From assembly GCA_000004695.1 (NCBI GenBank), contig CM000153.2, forward strand, positions 4,288,001 to 4,352,000: a DNA stretch of 64,000 nucleotides. The letters are read 5' to 3'. Every line of letters begins with the position of its first letter. Position 1 is the first letter of the stretch. The DNA comes from Dictyostelium discoideum. Its lineage: Eukaryota. Positions 1,227 to 52,400 of the stretch are shown piece by piece. The notes under the pieces were generated by a model. The model saw only the letters and a list, made by a program, of their open reading frames with translations, searched no databases and was not told the origin of the DNA. The translations under genes were made by a program, and so were the position numbers.

Positions 1227-4200
1227 TTGATTGTTTTGGTTATTATTGTTATTTTGATTGTTTTGATTATTATTATTTTGATTATTTTGATTATTTTGAT
1301 TATCTTGATTGTTTTGATTATTATTATTTTGATTATTTTGAATATTTTGATTATTTTGATTATTTTGAATATTTTGATTATTTTGATTATTTTGATTATT
1401 TTGATTATTTTGATTATTTTGAATATTATTTTGAATATTTAAATTTTTATAATAATTATTTATGGAATCAGAAAAGAAATGAGTTACTTGAGTAGCAGCA
1501 GATTTCCATAAAAATGTGAAAGCATCTAAATTGAAATTACCATTAATATGATCAACTTTGAAATATTTTAAGAAATTAAAGATAATTTCTTCACTATAGC
1601 TTTGATTAATAAAGATAGAGAATTCTTTTTGTTTTAAAAATGATTGGTCAATATCATCCATCATTACTAAAGAAGTCCAAATTTCATAGAGTTGAAGATG
1701 AGTAACATTTGGTTGATCAACTAAACCAGAATTTAATAAATAAGTGTAATAATCTTGAAAATCTGTTTTCTTCTTTGCAGAGATTGTTGAAAATTCAGAT
1801 TGCTTTGGATAACATGCCATAATTGCCTTATAAAAGTTCATAATTTGATTAAAAGAGTATGGATTCGCTTCTAATAGTTTATCTTTATATAATCTCTCTA
1901 ACAATGGTATTAAAGTACTAATGAACCTATTTGGATTCTCCATATAGTTTAATGTTATTTTTAAAGTTTTTGAAATTTCACAATTATAAGCACTATTAAT
2001 ACCATCCAATTCAAATGGAAGGAAAATCGATTCATTCTCGACTACAAATGATTTTAAAACTTTTTCTGTCACTAAACTTGGATGGGTTTGATGAAATGGT
2101 AATAACTTTTGTGTATATAATTCTACCAATATTTGATTATACATTCTTTTATTTAATGGTGATGACGACGATGATGATGATGACTGATTATTCTTTAAAT
2201 TTAAAACAAGATTTAAATCATCTGGATATAATTTTAAAACTTGATAAATTTCTTCTTCATCAAAATATTCGATTATATCTGAAATTTTATCGAAAAATAT
2301 ATATGGCTGTTGTTTAAATCTTTTTATATTTGATATTTCAATTTCCTTTTTAGATGCATCACTTAATTTACATTCAATAATTAATTGTTGAATATCTTTT
2401 GGTATTTGTATTGAAAATTCACTTGATAATTCTAATAAATCTTTAATTAATCTTAAAATTTCAAATTCTTTATTTGGACTATTATTTGGATTATTTGGAT
2501 TATTATTATTTAGTTCAAATGATGGTAATAATAATTTTAATTTTTCTTTTTCGATGAAATGAATTATACCATTTTTTAAAGATGATCCATCATCGTCATT
2601 ATTACAAAATTTATATAAAATTTCTTCAGTTTCATTTGATTTAAATATAACGAAACAATTTGTTTTATAAAATCTATTTTGTTGATAAGAATCTGTATCA
2701 TCACTTTCAATATCACTTAAACAATTGTTTCTTTCCTCTTCTTGATGTTGTTGTTGTTTTTTTTGTTCAATTTTATAAGCTCTAATTCTATTTAATGAAT
2801 TAATTGGTAATATTTCTTTAAATAATTTAATATTCATTTTTAAACCACCACCACCATCACCACTACCACTACTATTATTTTCATAATGATCATTAGAAAT
2901 TAATTTATCATTTGATATATCAATGAAATTATTTAAATAATGTTTTTCATAATTAATTGAACCTTGAATTTCTTGAAAATGTTTTCTTTTTTTTATACCT
3001 TGAAGTTGTTGTTGTTTTAATAATTTTCTTTGTTGTTGTTTTTCTTGTCTTTTCAATTGTTTTTTCAATTGTTTTTGTTGTAATCTTTCAAGTTTTTGTT
3101 GTTGTTCCAATTGTAATTGTTTTTGATATTGTTGATGTTGTTGCCTTGATTTTAAATTTAAATTTTTCTTTTCTTCATTATATTTCTTTATTACTTTTGT
3201 TCTCTTTTCAATTCTACGTCTTGCTCTATATCTTTTAGTTTCTTCATCTTCACTCGACGCTTCTGGTTTTATTAAATCACTATTATAAAAATTATTTAAT
3301 TCACCACCATCATCATCATCACCATAATCTTCATCATCATCACTTGTACAATAATTTTGTTGTTCTTGTTTAATTTTATTTTTATTCTTATTCTTATTAT
3401 TATTATTATTACCTTGATTTTCTTCACCTATATCACCATTACCAAATTGATTTTCTTCAATGTCATCGTCATCATCATCATCGTCATCAATATCAGAACT
3501 ACTATCACTACTTATACTACTTAAACTACTTTCATCACCTGATGATTCTACTAATATTCCTTCTACTTTTTCTTGATAATTTAATTCTGCTAAATATATA
3601 TAAAATTCCATTGAATCTTCCAATGAAATTGATTTCAATTTCTCATAAATTAATTTATCTCTACCTTTTAAATCTTTTGTTGATTTAATTGATTCCTGAC
3701 TATCTAAAATATAAACTAATTTTAAATTTTTTTCATTTTCTTCTTCTTCTTCTTCCTCGTCTTCAACTTCTTCTTGTTGTTGTTGTTGTTGATTTGATAA
3801 TAAATTATTTAATTCTTTTTTAATTTCAAATATATTTTCATTTTCTTTAAAAACTTTAAAAAATAATAAAACTCCATATTCATTATCATTATTTTCTTGA
3901 TAATCGTCAATAACTATAACTTCATTCTCCATTTTCATCTTTTCTTCAACTTGTTCTTTCTCCTCTTCTTTTTCTTCTTTTTCTTCTTTTATTTTACAAT
4001 TATCATTATTTAAACCATTGAAAACTATTTTAATTTTCTGATTTGAATCTAAAGGTAAAAGTATAAATAAATCACCAATTTCAATCTCTTTTTTAAATTT
4101 ATTATTGTCTACTATATCATCATATTGTTGCTGATGTTGTTCTTGTTCTTGTTCTTGTTCTTGTTCTTGTTGTTGTTCTTGTTGTTTTTGTTGTTTTTGT

Positions 4201-4809
4201 TGCTGCTTTAATTTTGAAAATAAAATCTCTGCTGAAGATTTGTATAAAAATAATTTTTGAGACCTTATATCTATTAAATGTTGATATTTCTCTATCCCAA
4301 ATTCTTTAGTGATGCTATTTATGGTTAAATCTTTGATTAAATTCTCCTTAAAATCAACTTTAAAATCTTTTGATATTTCGTAAATGGGAAAATTGGGTTC
4401 TAAAAATCGGAATTTTTTACGAAAAATTGAAAAAAAATGAAAAAGTTAGATAAAATTCGCCATCGATTTCAAAAAAAAAAAAAAAACCAATTGTTTTTTG
4501 ATTTTTGAATTTTTTTTTTTTTTTTTTTTTTTTTTAATCCTTACCTTTGAAATGAGTAATATTTTGAATATCTGATTCTATAAATTTTAAAAGTTTTTCT
4601 TGAGTTTCGAATTCAAGATTTATTGATTTACAACTTGTTGTTAGTGTTGTAATTGATATTAATGAGGAACCTTTTTCATAATTGAGTTCACTTGTGAATG
4701 TGTGGTTTTTATTTATAAACTTTTGAAAATCTTCATCAATTTCTTTGAAATTTGAAAATTGTAATAGTTTTGTAATCTCTTTATATTCACCATCTTTTGA
4801 GTCAACCAT
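1..4809 (-). CDS. Large low-complexity (poly-Asn, poly-Gln, acidic) protein of unknown function. The 3' end runs off the window start. Model: exon 1 at 4545..4809 (start MVDSKDGEYKEITKLL), intron 4400..4544, exon 2 at 1..4399 (partial).
   Basis: The listed ORF 4534..4809 ends at a GTAAGG donor (AAAG|GTAAGGATT on the minus strand). An acceptor TTTTTAG at 4400/4401 restores an open frame (…PNFPIYEISKDFKVDF…QQQKQQKQQEQQQEQEQ…). Hand translation keeps that frame open through non-repetitive blocks (…FHQTHPSLVTEKVLKSFVVENESIFLPFELDG…, …DPTPMSDRECYPLNSFLQDKNETFF…) and through the (AAT)n tracts down to nt 1. No stop-terminated minus-strand ORF is listed there, which fits a gene running off the window. 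No confident homolog recognised. Confidence 0.55.
1080..1445. repeat. (ATT)n followed by (ATTTTG/ATTATTTTG)n compound microsatellite. It lies in coding sequence and gives Asn/Gln-rich sequence (NNQNNQNIQ…) on the minus strand.
   Basis: Direct repeats gattattttgattattttg… are visible at 1240-1440. Confidence 0.85.
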
Positions 4810-13423: not shown

Positions 13424-14708
13424 TCTCAAAATTCAATTGAACAAATTAAATATGATTGGTTAAAAACTGTTGCATCTATATTACCCTCAATAGAATTATC
13501 CGTTGCAATCAAAGCAACCAATGATTTTGATAACATTGATGATTTAGTTCAATACTTAATGAATTACACTGCAACAAAAGATGATAATGAAATCTCAATC
13601 AATAATAATAATATCAATAATAATAACTATAATAATATCAATAGTAATAGTAATAGTAATAGTAATAGTTATAGTAATAGTTATAGTAATAGCAATGGCA
13701 ATGGCAATGGCAATACAAACACAAACACAAATATAAATATAGATAATACTAATAAGGTAAATGATGAACCAATTAAAACTACTACCACTACCTCAACAAC
13801 TACTACTACTACTACTACAAAACCACCAACTGCAAATATAAAGGGTCAATTAGATGATGAACAAAGAGAAATCGTAAGATTATTAGATGAAGAAATGAAA
13901 TTAGAAAAAGAAAGATTAATGTTAAAAGAACAACAAGAAAAAGAATCAATGGCTTTTATTTTATCAGAATTTAAAGATGATATTGATGTGTAATATCATA
14001 TATATATATATATAAATAATTATAAATCATATTTCCTAATATTAATTTTTTTTTTTTTTTTTTTATTTTTTATTTAAATAGTGATAAAAATAATGAAAAT
14101 AATAATAAAAATGATTCAGAATATATTAAAAGATTATTAGAGCAAGAACAAAATGAATTAGAAAGAAAAAGAAGAGATGAAGAATTTAAGGAGAAGGTAA
14201 TGTTAAATAGATACTTGGAAGAAGAGAAAATTAAAAAGGATTTAGAATTGGAGAATAAGAGATACGCTTGTGAGATTTGTTTTAGTGATGATCTTAAAAT
14301 TGACCAAATGTATACATTAGATGATTGTCATCATCGTTTCTGTAAAGAATGTCTTTCTCAACATTTCAAGAGTAAAATATTTGATGGTGATTGTAAATCA
14401 ATTCAATGTCCAGATACAAAATGTCGTAGATTGGTTAATTATCAAGAGATTAAACATAATGTCGACAAGATAACAATGGCAAAATATGAAGATTTCTTAT
14501 TAAAAACCACTTTGGAAGAAGATCCAAATTCTAGATTTTGTCCACGTCCAAATTGTAATAACGCTATGATTGGTGACTCTGATACTGTAACTATGATCAT
14601 TTGTACAAATGAATCTTGTAGATATACTTTTTGCTTTAATTGTAAATCAGAATGTAAGTTTTATTTTTTTAAAAAAAAAAAAAAAAAAAGATTTAAAGTA
14701 TTAAATCG

Positions 14709-14747
<39 letters not shown>

Positions 14748-15039
14748 TTAATATTAACTATGATAATAATTTTTTATTTTAAATTTAATAGGGCATAAAG
14801 ATATGACTTGTAAACAATGGAGCGAATTCAAAGTTTTAAAAGAGACATCAAACCAAAGATTCGAAGAATGGGCAAGAGAAAACACTAAACCTTGTCCAAA
14901 ATGTAAATCAAAGATTGAAAAAGATGGTGGTTGTAATCATATGACCTGTAAATTATGCAAACATCAATTTTGTTGGTTATGTTTGGATGTATATACTAAA
15001 ACTCATTTTAGTGGTGGAAAATGTAAACAAAACTCTTAA
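12974..15039 (+). CDS. RBR-type (RING1-IBR-RING2) E3 ubiquitin ligase. It has a long N-terminal poly-Asn/poly-Gln region and a UBA/CUE-like helix motif. Exons: 12974..13989, 14082..14653, 14792..15039 (introns 13990..14081 and 14654..14791).
   Basis: The three listed ORFs (12974..13993, 14200..14712, 14803..15039) join in frame through GTAAT…AAATAG and GTAAGT…TTTAATAG introns. The joined product has RING1 ([33 protein letters not shown]…CPDTKC), IBR ([16 protein letters not shown]…[18 protein letters not shown]) and RING2 ([31 protein letters not shown]). Upstream is [44 protein letters not shown] (UBA/CUE-like), then a coiled-coil [19 protein letters not shown]. Confidence 0.8.
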
Positions 15040-15509: not shown

Positions 15510-16165
15510 ATGAGTGGTGAAAAGAAGGAATATCCAAAAGAACATATTGATTTATATCAACAAATTAAATGGAATGGTTGGGGTGATACAAGAAAATTCC
15601 TTCACCAATTGAAACCATCTGGTACTATTGCAATGACAACACCAGAGGTATCAAGTGTACCATTACCATCACTTAGAGGATTTATAAAGAAAGAATTAAC
15701 TTTACCAGGTGAAGAAGATAAACCATTCGTTTTAGATGAAACACCAGCATTACAAATTGAAAATATTCATGTAGACCCACCAAAACAATATCCTGAATTT
15801 GTTAGAGAATTAAAAGCATTCTTTTTACCTGATCAATTAAAAGATGATAAATTAGCACGTATTACTCATACTTTTGGTAAATCATTAAGAGATTTAATTA
15901 GAGTTAGAATGTAATTATTTAGTTTATAATACATATTATCATATATATATATATATATATATATACATACATATATACATACATACATACATACATACAT
16001 AAATACATACATACATACATACATACATACATACATACATACATACATACATACATACATACATACATACATACATACATACATACATACATACATACAT
16101 ACATACATACATACATAAATACATACATACATAAATACAGACACACATCATCACACGTCATCGTA

Positions 16166-16221
<56 letters not shown>

Positions 16222-16340
16222 CCATCACACGTCATCATACATCATCACTACATAATCATAATCATGGTCAATATTTTTATCATGATAAAAAATATATATT
16301 TTATTATAATTAATTATAATAATTATTAATATAATTTAAT

Positions 16341-16383
<43 letters not shown>

Positions 16384-17817
16384 GGACAAGTTAAGAATGC
16401 ACCAGATTTAATTGTTTTACCACATTCACATGAAGAAGTTGAAAGATTAGTACAACTTGCACATAAATATAATGTAGTAATTATTCCAATGGGTGGTGGT
16501 TCAAATATTGTTGGTGCAATTGAACCAGTATCAAATGAAAGATTCACAGTATCAATTGATATGAGAAGAATGAATAAAGTTTTATGGGTTGATCGTAGAG
16601 AGATGACAGCATGTATTCAAGTTGGTATTATGGGACCAGAATTAGAAAAACAATTACATAAACAAGGTGTTAGTTTAGGTCATGATCCAGATTCATTTGA
16701 ATTCTCAACATTGGGTGGTTGGTTAGCAACTTGTTCATCAGGTCATCAATCTGATAAATATGGTGATATCGAAGATATGGCCGTTAGTTTCAGAACTGTA
16801 ACACCAACTGGTACATTGGAACTTAGAAATGGTGCTCGTTCAGGTGCTGGTATCAACTATAAACATATCATTCTCGGTTCCGAAGGTACTCTTGGTATCA
16901 TAACTGAAGCCGTTATGAAAGTACATGCTGTACCACAAGCTGTTGAATACTATGGTTTCCTTTTCCCAACTTTTGCTCATGCTGTATCTGCCCTCCAACA
17001 AATTCGTTCCTCAGAGGTTATTCCAACAATGATTCGTGTTTACGATCCAGAGGAAACTCAATTAAGTTTTGCTTGGAAACCAAGTAAAGGTGCTGTAAGT
17101 GAATTCACAAGTGCAATGGTTAAAAAGTATCTTCATTACATTCGTTCCTTTGATTTCAAGAATGTTTGTCTCTCTATCATTGGTTTCGAAGGTCCAAAGA
17201 AGGTTGTAGATTTCCATAGAACTTCAGTTTTCGATATCCTCTCCAAGAATGCTGCCTTTGGTTTAGGTTCTGCTCCTGGTAAAACTTGGGCCGAAAAAAG
17301 ATATGATCTTCCATATATTCGTGACTTTTTACTCGATCATAATATGTGGGTTGATGTCGCTGAAACTACTGTCTCCTATGCTAACCTTCAAACACTTTGG
17401 AAGGATGCTAAACAAACCTTTGTCAAACACTTTAAAGATCAAGGTATTCCAGCTTGGATTTGTGCTCACATCTCTCATACTTACACTAATGGTGTTTGTC
17501 TTTACTTCATTTTCGCCTCCAAACAAAATGAAAACAAAGATATGGCTCAATACATTGAAGCAAAGAAACTCATGACTGATATCATCTTCAAATATGGTGG
17601 TTCTCTCTCTCATCATCATGGTGTTGGTTATGAACATGTACCATGGATGACTCGTTATGCTACAAGAGGTTGGATCAACGTTTATCGTTCTCTCAAAGAA
17701 ACTATCGATCCAAAAGATATTTGTAATCCAAGAAAATTAATTCCAACAATTAAAGAAGAAAATAATAAAGAACCATTCTTATTTGATGTTGTTAATGTTA
17801 AATATCCAAAACTCTAA
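15510..17817 (+). CDS. agps: Alkyldihydroxyacetonephosphate synthase (alkyl-DHAP synthase, AGPS; FAD-binding PCMH-type). Exons: 15510..15910 and 16383..17817. Product 611 aa.
   Basis: Exon 1 (MSGEKKEYPKEHIDLYQQIKWNGWGDTRKF…RDLIRVR) ends at a GTAATT donor. Exon 2 begins after an …AAAAG acceptor and continues IGQVKNAPDLIVLPHSHEEVERLVQLAHKYNVVIIPMGGGSNIVGA… (FAD-binding domain), then the C-terminal domain (…HHGVGYEHVPWM…ICNPRKLIP). Length and N-terminus match my memory of D. discoideum alkyl-DHAP synthase, for which a crystal structure exists. Confidence 0.9.
15940..16225. repeat. Compound microsatellite inside the alkyl-DHAP synthase intron: (TA)~12, then (TACA)~45 with TAAA variants, then (CAT)~19.
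   Basis: Directly visible at 15941-15964 (atatat…), 15965-16140 (acatacatacat…) and 16160-16225 (catcatcat…). The ORFs 15866..16161(-) and related ones are artefacts of this repeat. Confidence 0.95.
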
Positions 17818-49463: not shown

Positions 49464-52400
49464 ATGAAAAGGTTTTTCATTGTAATATTATTTATTTTAC
49501 TTGTCTGCATTTTTAATGTAAAATCAGAAGAACAATTGGGGGAGATCGAAATATCTAAAAATAGTTTTTCAATTGACACAAATGCCATCAATGTAAGTAT
49601 TAATAAAATAAATTGAAATTATTTATCAAAAACTGGCAAAAAATTAAGCCCTTTGTTTCATTTTTTATTAATTTTTATTTTTTTTTTTTGACTTTTTTCT
49701 TTTTTTTTTTTTTTTTTTTTAATCCCAAAGGCCGAAATTAATTATGTTATTGATAATAGTATAACCAAACCAAAATTAATAGTTACATTATTATCAGGGG
49801 ATGTAAATAGCATAGAAGATATAACATCAATTTCAAAAGATAAATCAACCTTGACATTTGGTGATTTTTCATCATTATCATTAGGCAATAAACAAAGTAA
49901 TAATAATAATAGAATTGTATTAATGATAGCGACAATCACAGGTTCTTTATTATTCATTAGATTTAATATTGGTTTTAATAAATCAACAACATTAATAATT
50001 TTAATTATTGGTACAATCTTTTTAATTGGGTCAAGTCATTCAATAACATTATCAGAAGTTTCAATTCGTATTGATATTAAAGTACCATCAACATTTAAAT
50101 TTGAAAAATTAGATTTGAAATTAGGTTCTGGTTCTTCAAATATTATTGGTTTATCTTCAAATTCAATCAATATTGATAGTTGTTTAAATTTAAAAGATCA
50201 CAAAATCAATTTATCAGACACAACAATTACATCAGCTTTAAATATTTGTTCAACTAAAAATATTGATATTAAAAATTTAAAACAATCATCAAATTCTTTA
50301 ATAAATTTAAAAACAAATTCAAATATTACTTTAAATTTTGGTGTAGGTAATTAATTATTATATATAAAAAAAAAAAAAATAATAATAATAATACATACTA
50401 AAAAAAAAAAAAAAATAGAATGGATATAGTGGTTTATTAGATATTTATAGTAATAGTTTAAAAATCGATGAAGCTTGTGATATTAAAGTGGATGGTTTAA
50501 ATACTACTGGTAGTTGTAATGAAGGTACTTCTTCTAAATTAGTTATCAATGCTAATGGAGTCACAATCACTGGTACTACTCCAACAACCACTCCAACAAC
50601 CACTCCAACAACCACACCAACAACTACACCAACAACTACTCCAACAACTACTCCAACAACTACTCCAACAACTACTCCAACAACTACTCCAACAACTACT
50701 CCAACAACTACACCAACAACTACACCAACAACAACACCAACAACAACACCAACAATAACTCCAACAACTACACCAACAACTACACCAACAACTACACCAA
50801 CAGATTCATGTCCAACAACATCAACATGGAGACCAACAATGGCATCATCAAGTTCACCAAGTTCACCATCATTTTCAAGTGTAACACCAATATTAGATTT
50901 TAATTTTGATAAAAGCAATTTAGGATTTAGATCAAGATATAAGTTCAATGAAAAAAGTATTTCAGATGGACCAAATGGTATTGCAAATTCATTTTCTATT
51001 AATTTTAATGAAACCTATTCACCAGATAGTAATTGGTTAATTTCAAAGATACCATCACCAGCATTAAGAGCCAACGTAAATTATGTATTCTCTTTTAATT
51101 TTAAATTGGGTCAGGCATTATCAAGTGATAATACAATTTCTTCAGTGACAATTTCATTTTATAGTCCAATTGATTTACCAGACCCAAATGTATTGGAATA
51201 TTTCGATCAACCAACTGCTTCACCATTATTTACAAAAACAATTACCACTGGTAGTTTCTCAAGCTCAACAACTTTTCAAGCAAATAGCATATCAATTAAA
51301 CCAACCACTGATATTGGTTTATCATTAATTGCAATTCAAATCATTCGTACCAAACAAAATAGTATTCCAATTAATTTATATTTTAGTGAAATGAAATTAA
51401 GCATTCCATCGAAATCAATTATTGATCCAACAACATTTTTAACTAAAGATTCAGAATTGATTAATATTCCAAAAGCATCAGCATCATTTGATTCACAAGA
51501 TCCATCAACATGTCCATATTTAGCAACTGATTTAGTTCATTGGCATGATAAATCCATTTGGAGTTCTGGTATTGTACCTTTACCTAACGCATCGAGTAAT
51601 ATTATTTTACCAGCTGGTAAAAGAGTTTTAATTAGTCCATGTTCAATTTCACAAACTGATATCTATAAAAAAATAACCATTCCACCAACAAGTGAATTGA
51701 TTTTTAGTGATGTCAATATGACAATGCATGTTCAAGATATCTATGTTCAAGGTAAATTCACTATGGGTACAAAAGAATGTCGTTACAATGCCTATATAAA
51801 TCTAATTTTTCATGGTACTAAAACCACCAGTGATACTATTGCCACCAATTTCGGTTCAAAAGGTATTGCAGTTGCTTCGGGTGGTTTCATTTCAGTACAA
51901 GGTAAACAATATCATAATACTTGGAGTAAATTATCAACCACTGCATGGTCTGGTGATTCTACAATCTATATTCAAGATTCTGTAAATTGGGAAGTTGGCC
52001 AACAGGTTTTAATAACAACAAGTGTCTACAAGGATGAATTGTACAATCAGAATGAGGTTTTAACAATTGCTGCAATCTCTGGTAAGAAAATTCAATTTAC
52101 AAGTGCACTTAAATATTACCATTATGGTGGTCAAGAATATCAAGCAGAGGTTGGTTTACTCTCAAGAAGAATCGTATTCCAAGGTGATCAAAGTTCATCG
52201 GATCCTCAACAATTTGGTGGTCATGTATTGGTTAGTGGTGAAGGTCAATTCTCGGGTTTATCATTGGTTCGTTTTGGTCAAAAAAATATTAAAGGTCGTT
52301 ATCCACTTCATTATCATTTGGCAAATAATGTTCAAAAATCTTATATCTCTGATTGTTCAGTTATTGATAGTTATTATCGTTGTTATACAATTCACGGTAC

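Follow-up and report, generated by a model that had tools for sequence, protein, structure and literature searches.

Microsatellites, probably expanded by slippage, fill an old, length-variable intron of the alkyl-DHAP synthase gene in Dictyostelium discoideum

The only intron of the alkyl-DHAP synthase gene in an AT-rich 64-kb stretch of Dictyostelium discoideum DNA (64,000 nucleotides, 23.8% G+C; hereafter the window) is 472 bp long and consists mostly of TA, TACA, CAT and A repeats. Comparison with orthologous introns suggests that these repeats are neutral replication-slippage microsatellites, which would have grown within an old, position-conserved intron of an SSR-rich genome. We give this reading a probability of about 85%, with the comparisons below pointing both to slippage as the mechanism and to neutrality. 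The TACA and CAT expansion itself is lineage-specific and unconserved.

The gene consists of two exons on the plus strand (Table 1), and a 611-aa open reading frame results when 15510-15910 is joined to 16383-17817. The translated product matches AX4 XP_637836 with 100% identity over its full length, and its residues 9-587 are 100% identical to PDB 2UUU/2UUV, the crystallised, cDNA-derived D. discoideum alkyl-DHAP synthase. Because the splice junction (...R-V-R-I(AT|T)-G-Q-V...) falls within the stretch identical to PDB 2UUU, the intron corresponds exactly to 15911-16382. It has the properties of a U2-type GT-AG intron, with GTAATT at 15911 and AG at 16381-16382, and its 472 bp are precisely missing from the mature protein, while unspliced read-through into the intron meets an immediate stop (ATG TAA). 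The original prediction of a 472-bp intron in this gene, made from the sequence of the window, is thus confirmed by the spliced product. The gene model is already in public annotation. The protein ends in ...VKYPKL (window 17797-17814), which we take to resemble a PTS1-like peroxisomal targeting tripeptide; such an end would fit a peroxisomal enzyme and has no bearing on the intron.

Within the intron, the TA, TACA and CAT tracts follow one another between a short 5' segment and an AT-rich backbone, the latter presumably holding the branch site, and the A37 run abuts the acceptor (Table 1). Tandem Repeats Finder (TRF) reported 51.5 copies of ATAC with the TA run counted in (score 335, 94% match) and 40 copies of CAT (score 134). 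Perfect SSRs make up 56% of the 472 bp, and imperfect arrays bring the share to about three quarters. Allowing at most one mismatch, (TACA)4 gave 41 matches, against 0 in 100 dinucleotide-preserving shuffles; the TACA and CAT arrays are thus tandem arrays of 1-6-bp units far above chance, as expected of microsatellites. The TACA array is composed of alternating pyrimidines and purines and is G-free, and no perfect SSR in the window is longer than its 28-copy run (112 bp). The sense strand of the whole intron holds 86 C and 10 G, with zero G between 15923 and 16139, and A37 stands where a pyrimidine tract would precede the acceptor. The predicted composition held for the TA run (12 copies), the TACA array (44 units) and the CAT tract (18 copies), as did the presence of a UACA/CAU tract on the transcribed strand, while the terminal A run proved to be 37 rather than 30 bases long.

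Table 1. Features of the alkyl-DHAP synthase gene in the window and orthologous introns in other genomes.
Feature	Position	Strand	Description
Exon 1	15510-15910	+	codons 1-133 and the first two bases of Ile134
Intron, sole one in the gene	15911-16382	+	472 bp, GT..AG, phase 2; (TA)12, TACA array, (CAT)18, A37 (AX4-like)
Donor GTAATT and unique AT-rich 5' segment	15911-15941	+	31 nt
(TA)12 microsatellite	15942-15965	+	
(TACA)n array	15964-16139	+	44 units in total, in perfect runs of 6, 28 and 3 with TAAA between them
Imperfect CAT/CAC tract	16146-16265	+	120 bp
Perfect (CAT)18	16166-16219	+	within the CAT/CAC tract
AT-rich non-microsatellite backbone	16266-16344	+	about 80 nt; largely alignable across D. 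discoideum-complex genomes
A37 homopolymer, then acceptor AG	16345-16382	+	A run 16345-16381
Exon 2	16383-17817	+	third base of Ile134 to the stop codon; protein end ...YPKL
Intron, D. discoideum GCA_054859355			282 bp; (AT)28, (CAT)4, A18, two adjacent TACA copies
Intron, D. discoideum GCA_054859385			229 bp; (AT)7, A28
Intron, D. cf. discoideum GCA_054859235			483 bp; (ACAT)21, (TAT)56, (ATCATA)12
Intron, D. cf. discoideum GCA_054859205			352 bp; (TTA)38, A27
Introns, D. citrinum, two assemblies			192 bp, with short (TTA)n runs, and 143 bp, lacking them
Intron, D. dimigraforme			263 bp; CAT/CAC-rich
Intron, D. firmibasis			205 bp; TTCG/TTCA repeats
Intron, D. purpureum			190 bp; (TAA)18
Intron, Heterostelium album (group 2)	about 1459-1539 of its locus		81 nt; (ATAG)4+3

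The tract had been expected to vary in length between strains, and this was borne out in the three D. discoideum genomes compared, where the intron measures 472, 282 and 229 bp although the coding sequences are near-identical. The coding sequence of the window diverges from those of the two wild isolates by 0.87% and 1.03%, and the two wild isolates differ by 0.2% in coding sequence and by 53 bp in intron length. Copy-number polymorphism, a hallmark of microsatellites, was seen in every tract: the longest TACA run of the window holds 28 copies against 2-4 units in the wild isolates, and the largest runs in the window, 282-bp and 229-bp alleles, respectively, are 18, 4 and 3 copies for CAT, 12, 27-28 and 7 for TA, and 37, 18 and 28 bases for the terminal A run. 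Once the TA, TACA, CAT and terminal-A tracts are taken out, 201, 190 and 162 bp are left in the three alleles, indicating that nearly all of the extra length of the window allele is repeat expansion. The repeat-free backbone of about 160-200 bp is close to the mean D. discoideum intron of 146 bp given in PMC3188802, and the full intron, at about three times that mean, is as unusually long as had been claimed.

Long microsatellites are difficult to assemble, a problem noted for dictyostelid genomes in the same paper (PMC3188802), so that a collapsed or inflated reference might be suspected behind the 472 bp. We consider such an artefact very unlikely given that the array is ordered, with three TAAA interruptions, and lies between unique flanks that align to other strains, and given that (ACAT)21 occupies the same place in the genome of a cryptic sister species, which was sequenced independently and probably by Nanopore plus Illumina; moreover, a miscount by a few units would leave every conclusion intact. 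Judged from their species set and dates, the GCA_05485xxxx assemblies most probably stem from PMC12745789, a study of ten group-4 genomes assembled from Nanopore and Illumina reads, and if so, the 50-250 bp differences are well above their assembly error.

To place the intron in a wider phylogenetic frame, orthologues were taken from the protein's 90%-identity cluster, which covers recently deposited assemblies, plus D. purpureum and Heterostelium album. The ten assemblies other than the window represent D. discoideum (two wild isolates), D. cf. discoideum (two), D. citrinum (two), D. dimigraforme, D. firmibasis, D. purpureum and H. album, and in all ten an intron interrupts the same codon in the same phase. 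Because this holds down to H. album, a member of group 2, the position predates the split between groups 2 and 4. The content of the intron is a different matter, as most of the 11 genomes carry a repeat there and its motif varies by lineage (Table 1). The unique flanks of the intron align within the D. discoideum complex, every genome of which has the short seeds CATACATAAATACATACA and CATCATCAC... as well as a terminal A run (10-28 bases in the other genomes of the complex versus 37 in the window). The 5' segment includes GTAATTATT, which recurs in all genomes of the D. discoideum complex, in D. firmibasis and D. dimigraforme, and in one D. citrinum assembly out of two. Alignment between species retained GTAA...AAAG alone, with a mean column identity of 51% in AT-rich sequence.

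At the D. dimigraforme locus, the annotation cuts alkyl-DHAP synthase into two genes of 134 aa (2117-2521) and 404 aa (3001-4215), and removal of the 263-bp intron (2518-2780) restores an intact 1836-nt coding sequence. The split call probably reflects a repeat-rich intron that was missed by the gene caller.

The sequence of events that we favor would begin with an old spliceosomal intron, fixed in position (phase 2, Ile134), whose interior is unconstrained AT-rich DNA. Short proto-repeats, namely the TA run, the CATACATA seed, the CATCAC seed and the terminal A run, would then have grown by replication slippage, and the first three of them also occur in other D. discoideum genomes. In the AX4/NC4-like lineage the TACA seed would have reached about 44 units and the CAT seed 18 units, and this growth, together with a longer A run, would explain the bulk of the extra length, roughly 240 bp on top of the 160-200-bp backbone. 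The intron would still be accurately removed, leaving the repeats as passengers without a selected function.

Several observations sit less comfortably with pure neutrality. TACA-class repeats are uncommon and, among the loci of the 10 relatives, appear only in the orthologous intron of one D. cf. discoideum genome. The long TACA tracts of the window and of this genome imply that one motif either grew or was kept at a single site in two lineages; TACA is short in three genomes that are intermediate by coding distance between the window and the D. cf. discoideum carrier, and this distribution requires either two expansions or several contractions. An excess of C over G on the sense strand recurs in the D. 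discoideum complex and D. dimigraforme (31:7, 28:6, 56:5, 29:2 and 52:9 in the relatives). In addition, a CATCACC heptamer is found in 9 of 10 group-4 introns (16217-16223 in the window), where it probably marks the seed from which the CAT/CAC tract first grew; its recurrence in these sequences could hint at a weak constraint beyond common ancestry. All three oddities are most simply explained by common ancestry together with slippage from one shared seed.

The list of motifs expanded in the orthologous introns (TA, TACA, CAT, TTA, CATAAT, TAA, TTCR, TAGA and poly-A) raises the further possibility that the locus is a persistent "microsatellite nursery" with its own propensity for repeat birth and expansion, which could arise from its transcription or replication context; the long TACA tracts of two lineages and the recurring C-over-G bias and CATCACC seed would fit such a view. 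The expansion in the AX4 lineage could, in addition, measurably change how this ether-lipid gene is spliced or expressed in the standard laboratory strain compared with wild ones. We regard this combined proposal as quite unlikely.

A functional reading was part of the original prediction, in which the UACA/CAU repeats could bind RNA-binding proteins or affect splicing. In animals, hnRNP L and Nova-type proteins bind CA-rich and YCAY-type intronic repeats. By analogy with these targets, and with the C-rich, G-poor bias common to the D. discoideum complex, the tract might be a selected platform acting as a splicing enhancer or silencer in the regulation of ether-lipid synthesis. A repeat selected for splicing should be retained in relatives, and the opposite was found: only 2-4 TACA and 3-4 CAT units are present in wild D. 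discoideum, (TTA)n, (TAA)n, TTCR or TAGA repeats are found instead in other species, and the interior is unconserved between species. The regulatory role proposed for the repeats is thus unsupported, and a selected platform appears highly improbable.

An effect in cis that is not under selection has more to be said for it. The G-free UACA/CAU stretch of about 300 nt, together with A37, may slow or weaken splicing or transcription in this lineage, much as human intronic repeat polymorphisms alter splicing or expression. The intron is 2-3 times longer than in conspecific isolates, the entire UACA/CAU tract is left unpaired in the predicted fold and could thus be single-stranded, and A37 takes the place of a pyrimidine tract at the acceptor. 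Moreover, the only internal AGs of the intron are at 15921-15922, too near the donor, and at 16139-16140, where a T-to-G change in the AX4 lineage (TACATACACACA in the wild isolates, TACAGACACACA in the window) creates the sole usable one; splicing to it would add I-H-T-S-S-H-V-I-V-(His)n followed by a stop. However, the cDNA-derived protein shows correct splicing, the tract offers no cryptic GT donor or AG acceptor because it is G-free from 15923 to 16139, and relatives with introns of 352-483 bp retain an intact reading frame. A cis effect of this kind is therefore judged unlikely, and neutral slippage in an old intron stays the preferred explanation.

We also considered whether the intron houses a small RNA gene or a hidden coding exon. 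The Rfam scan of the intron returned sub-threshold low-complexity matches only. The mir-297 family (RF04217) scored 43.1 and 42 bits on minus-strand (TGTA)n at 15937-16076 (-), less than half of its gathering threshold of 90, and was set aside as a low-complexity artefact; weak C/D-box snoRNA matches (E-values 0.3-0.7) were likewise rejected. Folding of the intron RNA gave a minimum free energy of -25.9 kcal/mol with z = -1.42, and 6 of 100 shuffles folded as well, so that the fold is no better than that of shuffled sequence; between species the interior could not be aligned to support any conserved pairs by covariation. Minus-strand open reading frames are repeat artefacts of the MYVC... type. 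The (CAT)n run could in principle encode poly-His, but a hidden exon is excluded by in-frame stops: read-through stops at once, and the frame opened by the alternative acceptor also ends in a stop. Given in addition that the protein and all orthologues lack an insertion at the junction and that the sequence is unconserved, a small RNA gene or hidden exon is hardly credible.

How unusual the locus is was assessed against its surroundings and the genome at large. As a control, we used the final intron (14654-14791 (+), 138 bp) of the RBR/IBR E3-ligase gene that lies next to it on the upstream side. This intron contains A19 and (ATA)13, and its counterparts in three of the genomes compared above are 127, 127 and 262 bp long, the difference being driven by (AAT)n. 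A heuristic, noisy ORF-joining census of the window, which missed the true 472-bp intron, yielded clean short introns of 68, 103 and 138 bp. The TACA array is the sole ACAT-class SSR in the window, the other perfect SSRs being of A or AAT type besides coding-type AAC repeats and two small hexanucleotide arrays. PMC3188802 gives SSRs an 11% share of the D. discoideum genome, counts 1,436 tracts longer than 100 bp and reports a mean intron of 177 bp for D. purpureum; another count puts the SSR share of D. discoideum at 14.3% and characterises Dictyostelium SSRs as AT-rich (PMC6387519). D. discoideum SSRs are also mutational hotspots that appear to evolve mainly via mutation and drift (PMC7466956). 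A literature search for genome-wide (ACAT)n motif statistics in Dictyostelium and for an earlier description of this intron returned nothing specific. The suggestion that many such introns would make this one unremarkable therefore finds a divided answer: length-variable repeat introns are common here, while the TACA motif is locally rare. That rarity is no evidence of function, and a repeat-swollen, length-variable intron is what non-coding DNA normally shows in this species complex.

Elsewhere in the window, three arrays of the (ATT)/(TAT) type, 243-348 bp long, occupy 3-245, 407-754 and 1086-1430. All three are longer than the TACA array, and the open reading frames listed across 3-1430 are short and repeat-derived only. 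At 50575-50802, 19 copies of the 12-bp unit ACTACTCCAACA (94% match) form what looks like an in-frame coding Thr/Pro-rich repeat.

The intron carries little biological weight in itself and is best taken as an example of slippage inflating introns in a very SSR-rich genome. Ranging from 143 to 483 bp in group 4 between nearly identical flanking exons, it would serve as a very informative PCR marker for strains and cryptic species. The AX4 reference gives an unrepresentative intron length for D. discoideum, and the gene split at this intron in D. dimigraforme is a warning to annotators.

Like other non-coding D. discoideum SSRs, the tracts are tandem 1-4-bp units in AT-rich non-coding DNA, apparently expanded by slippage and polymorphic in length among isolates, but their motifs contain C (TACA and CAT) and four of them are concatenated in one intron. 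Intron 1 of human CNBP holds a compound (TG)n(TCTG)n(CCTG)n repeat. Both cases present a compound di- and tetranucleotide intronic array on the transcribed strand with big differences in allele length, whereas the array here has tens rather than thousands of copies and its repeat RNA is predicted to be unstructured. The CA repeats in intron 13 of eNOS, with hnRNP L, and the TG/T tract in intron 8 of CFTR, with TDP-43, are splicing modifiers. By analogy, a length-polymorphic, C/A-rich intronic repeat near a splice site could in principle modulate splicing here as well, according to its copy number; however, conspecifics and sister species lack the present tract or carry other repeats in its place. 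Finally, Plasmodium falciparum, with its intronic and intergenic microsatellite polymorphism (PMC6644851), has a very AT-rich genome with about 11% microsatellites and natural variation dominated by repeat-length change. This is a different organism, and the parallel extends only to how ordinary such repeats are in AT-rich protist genomes.
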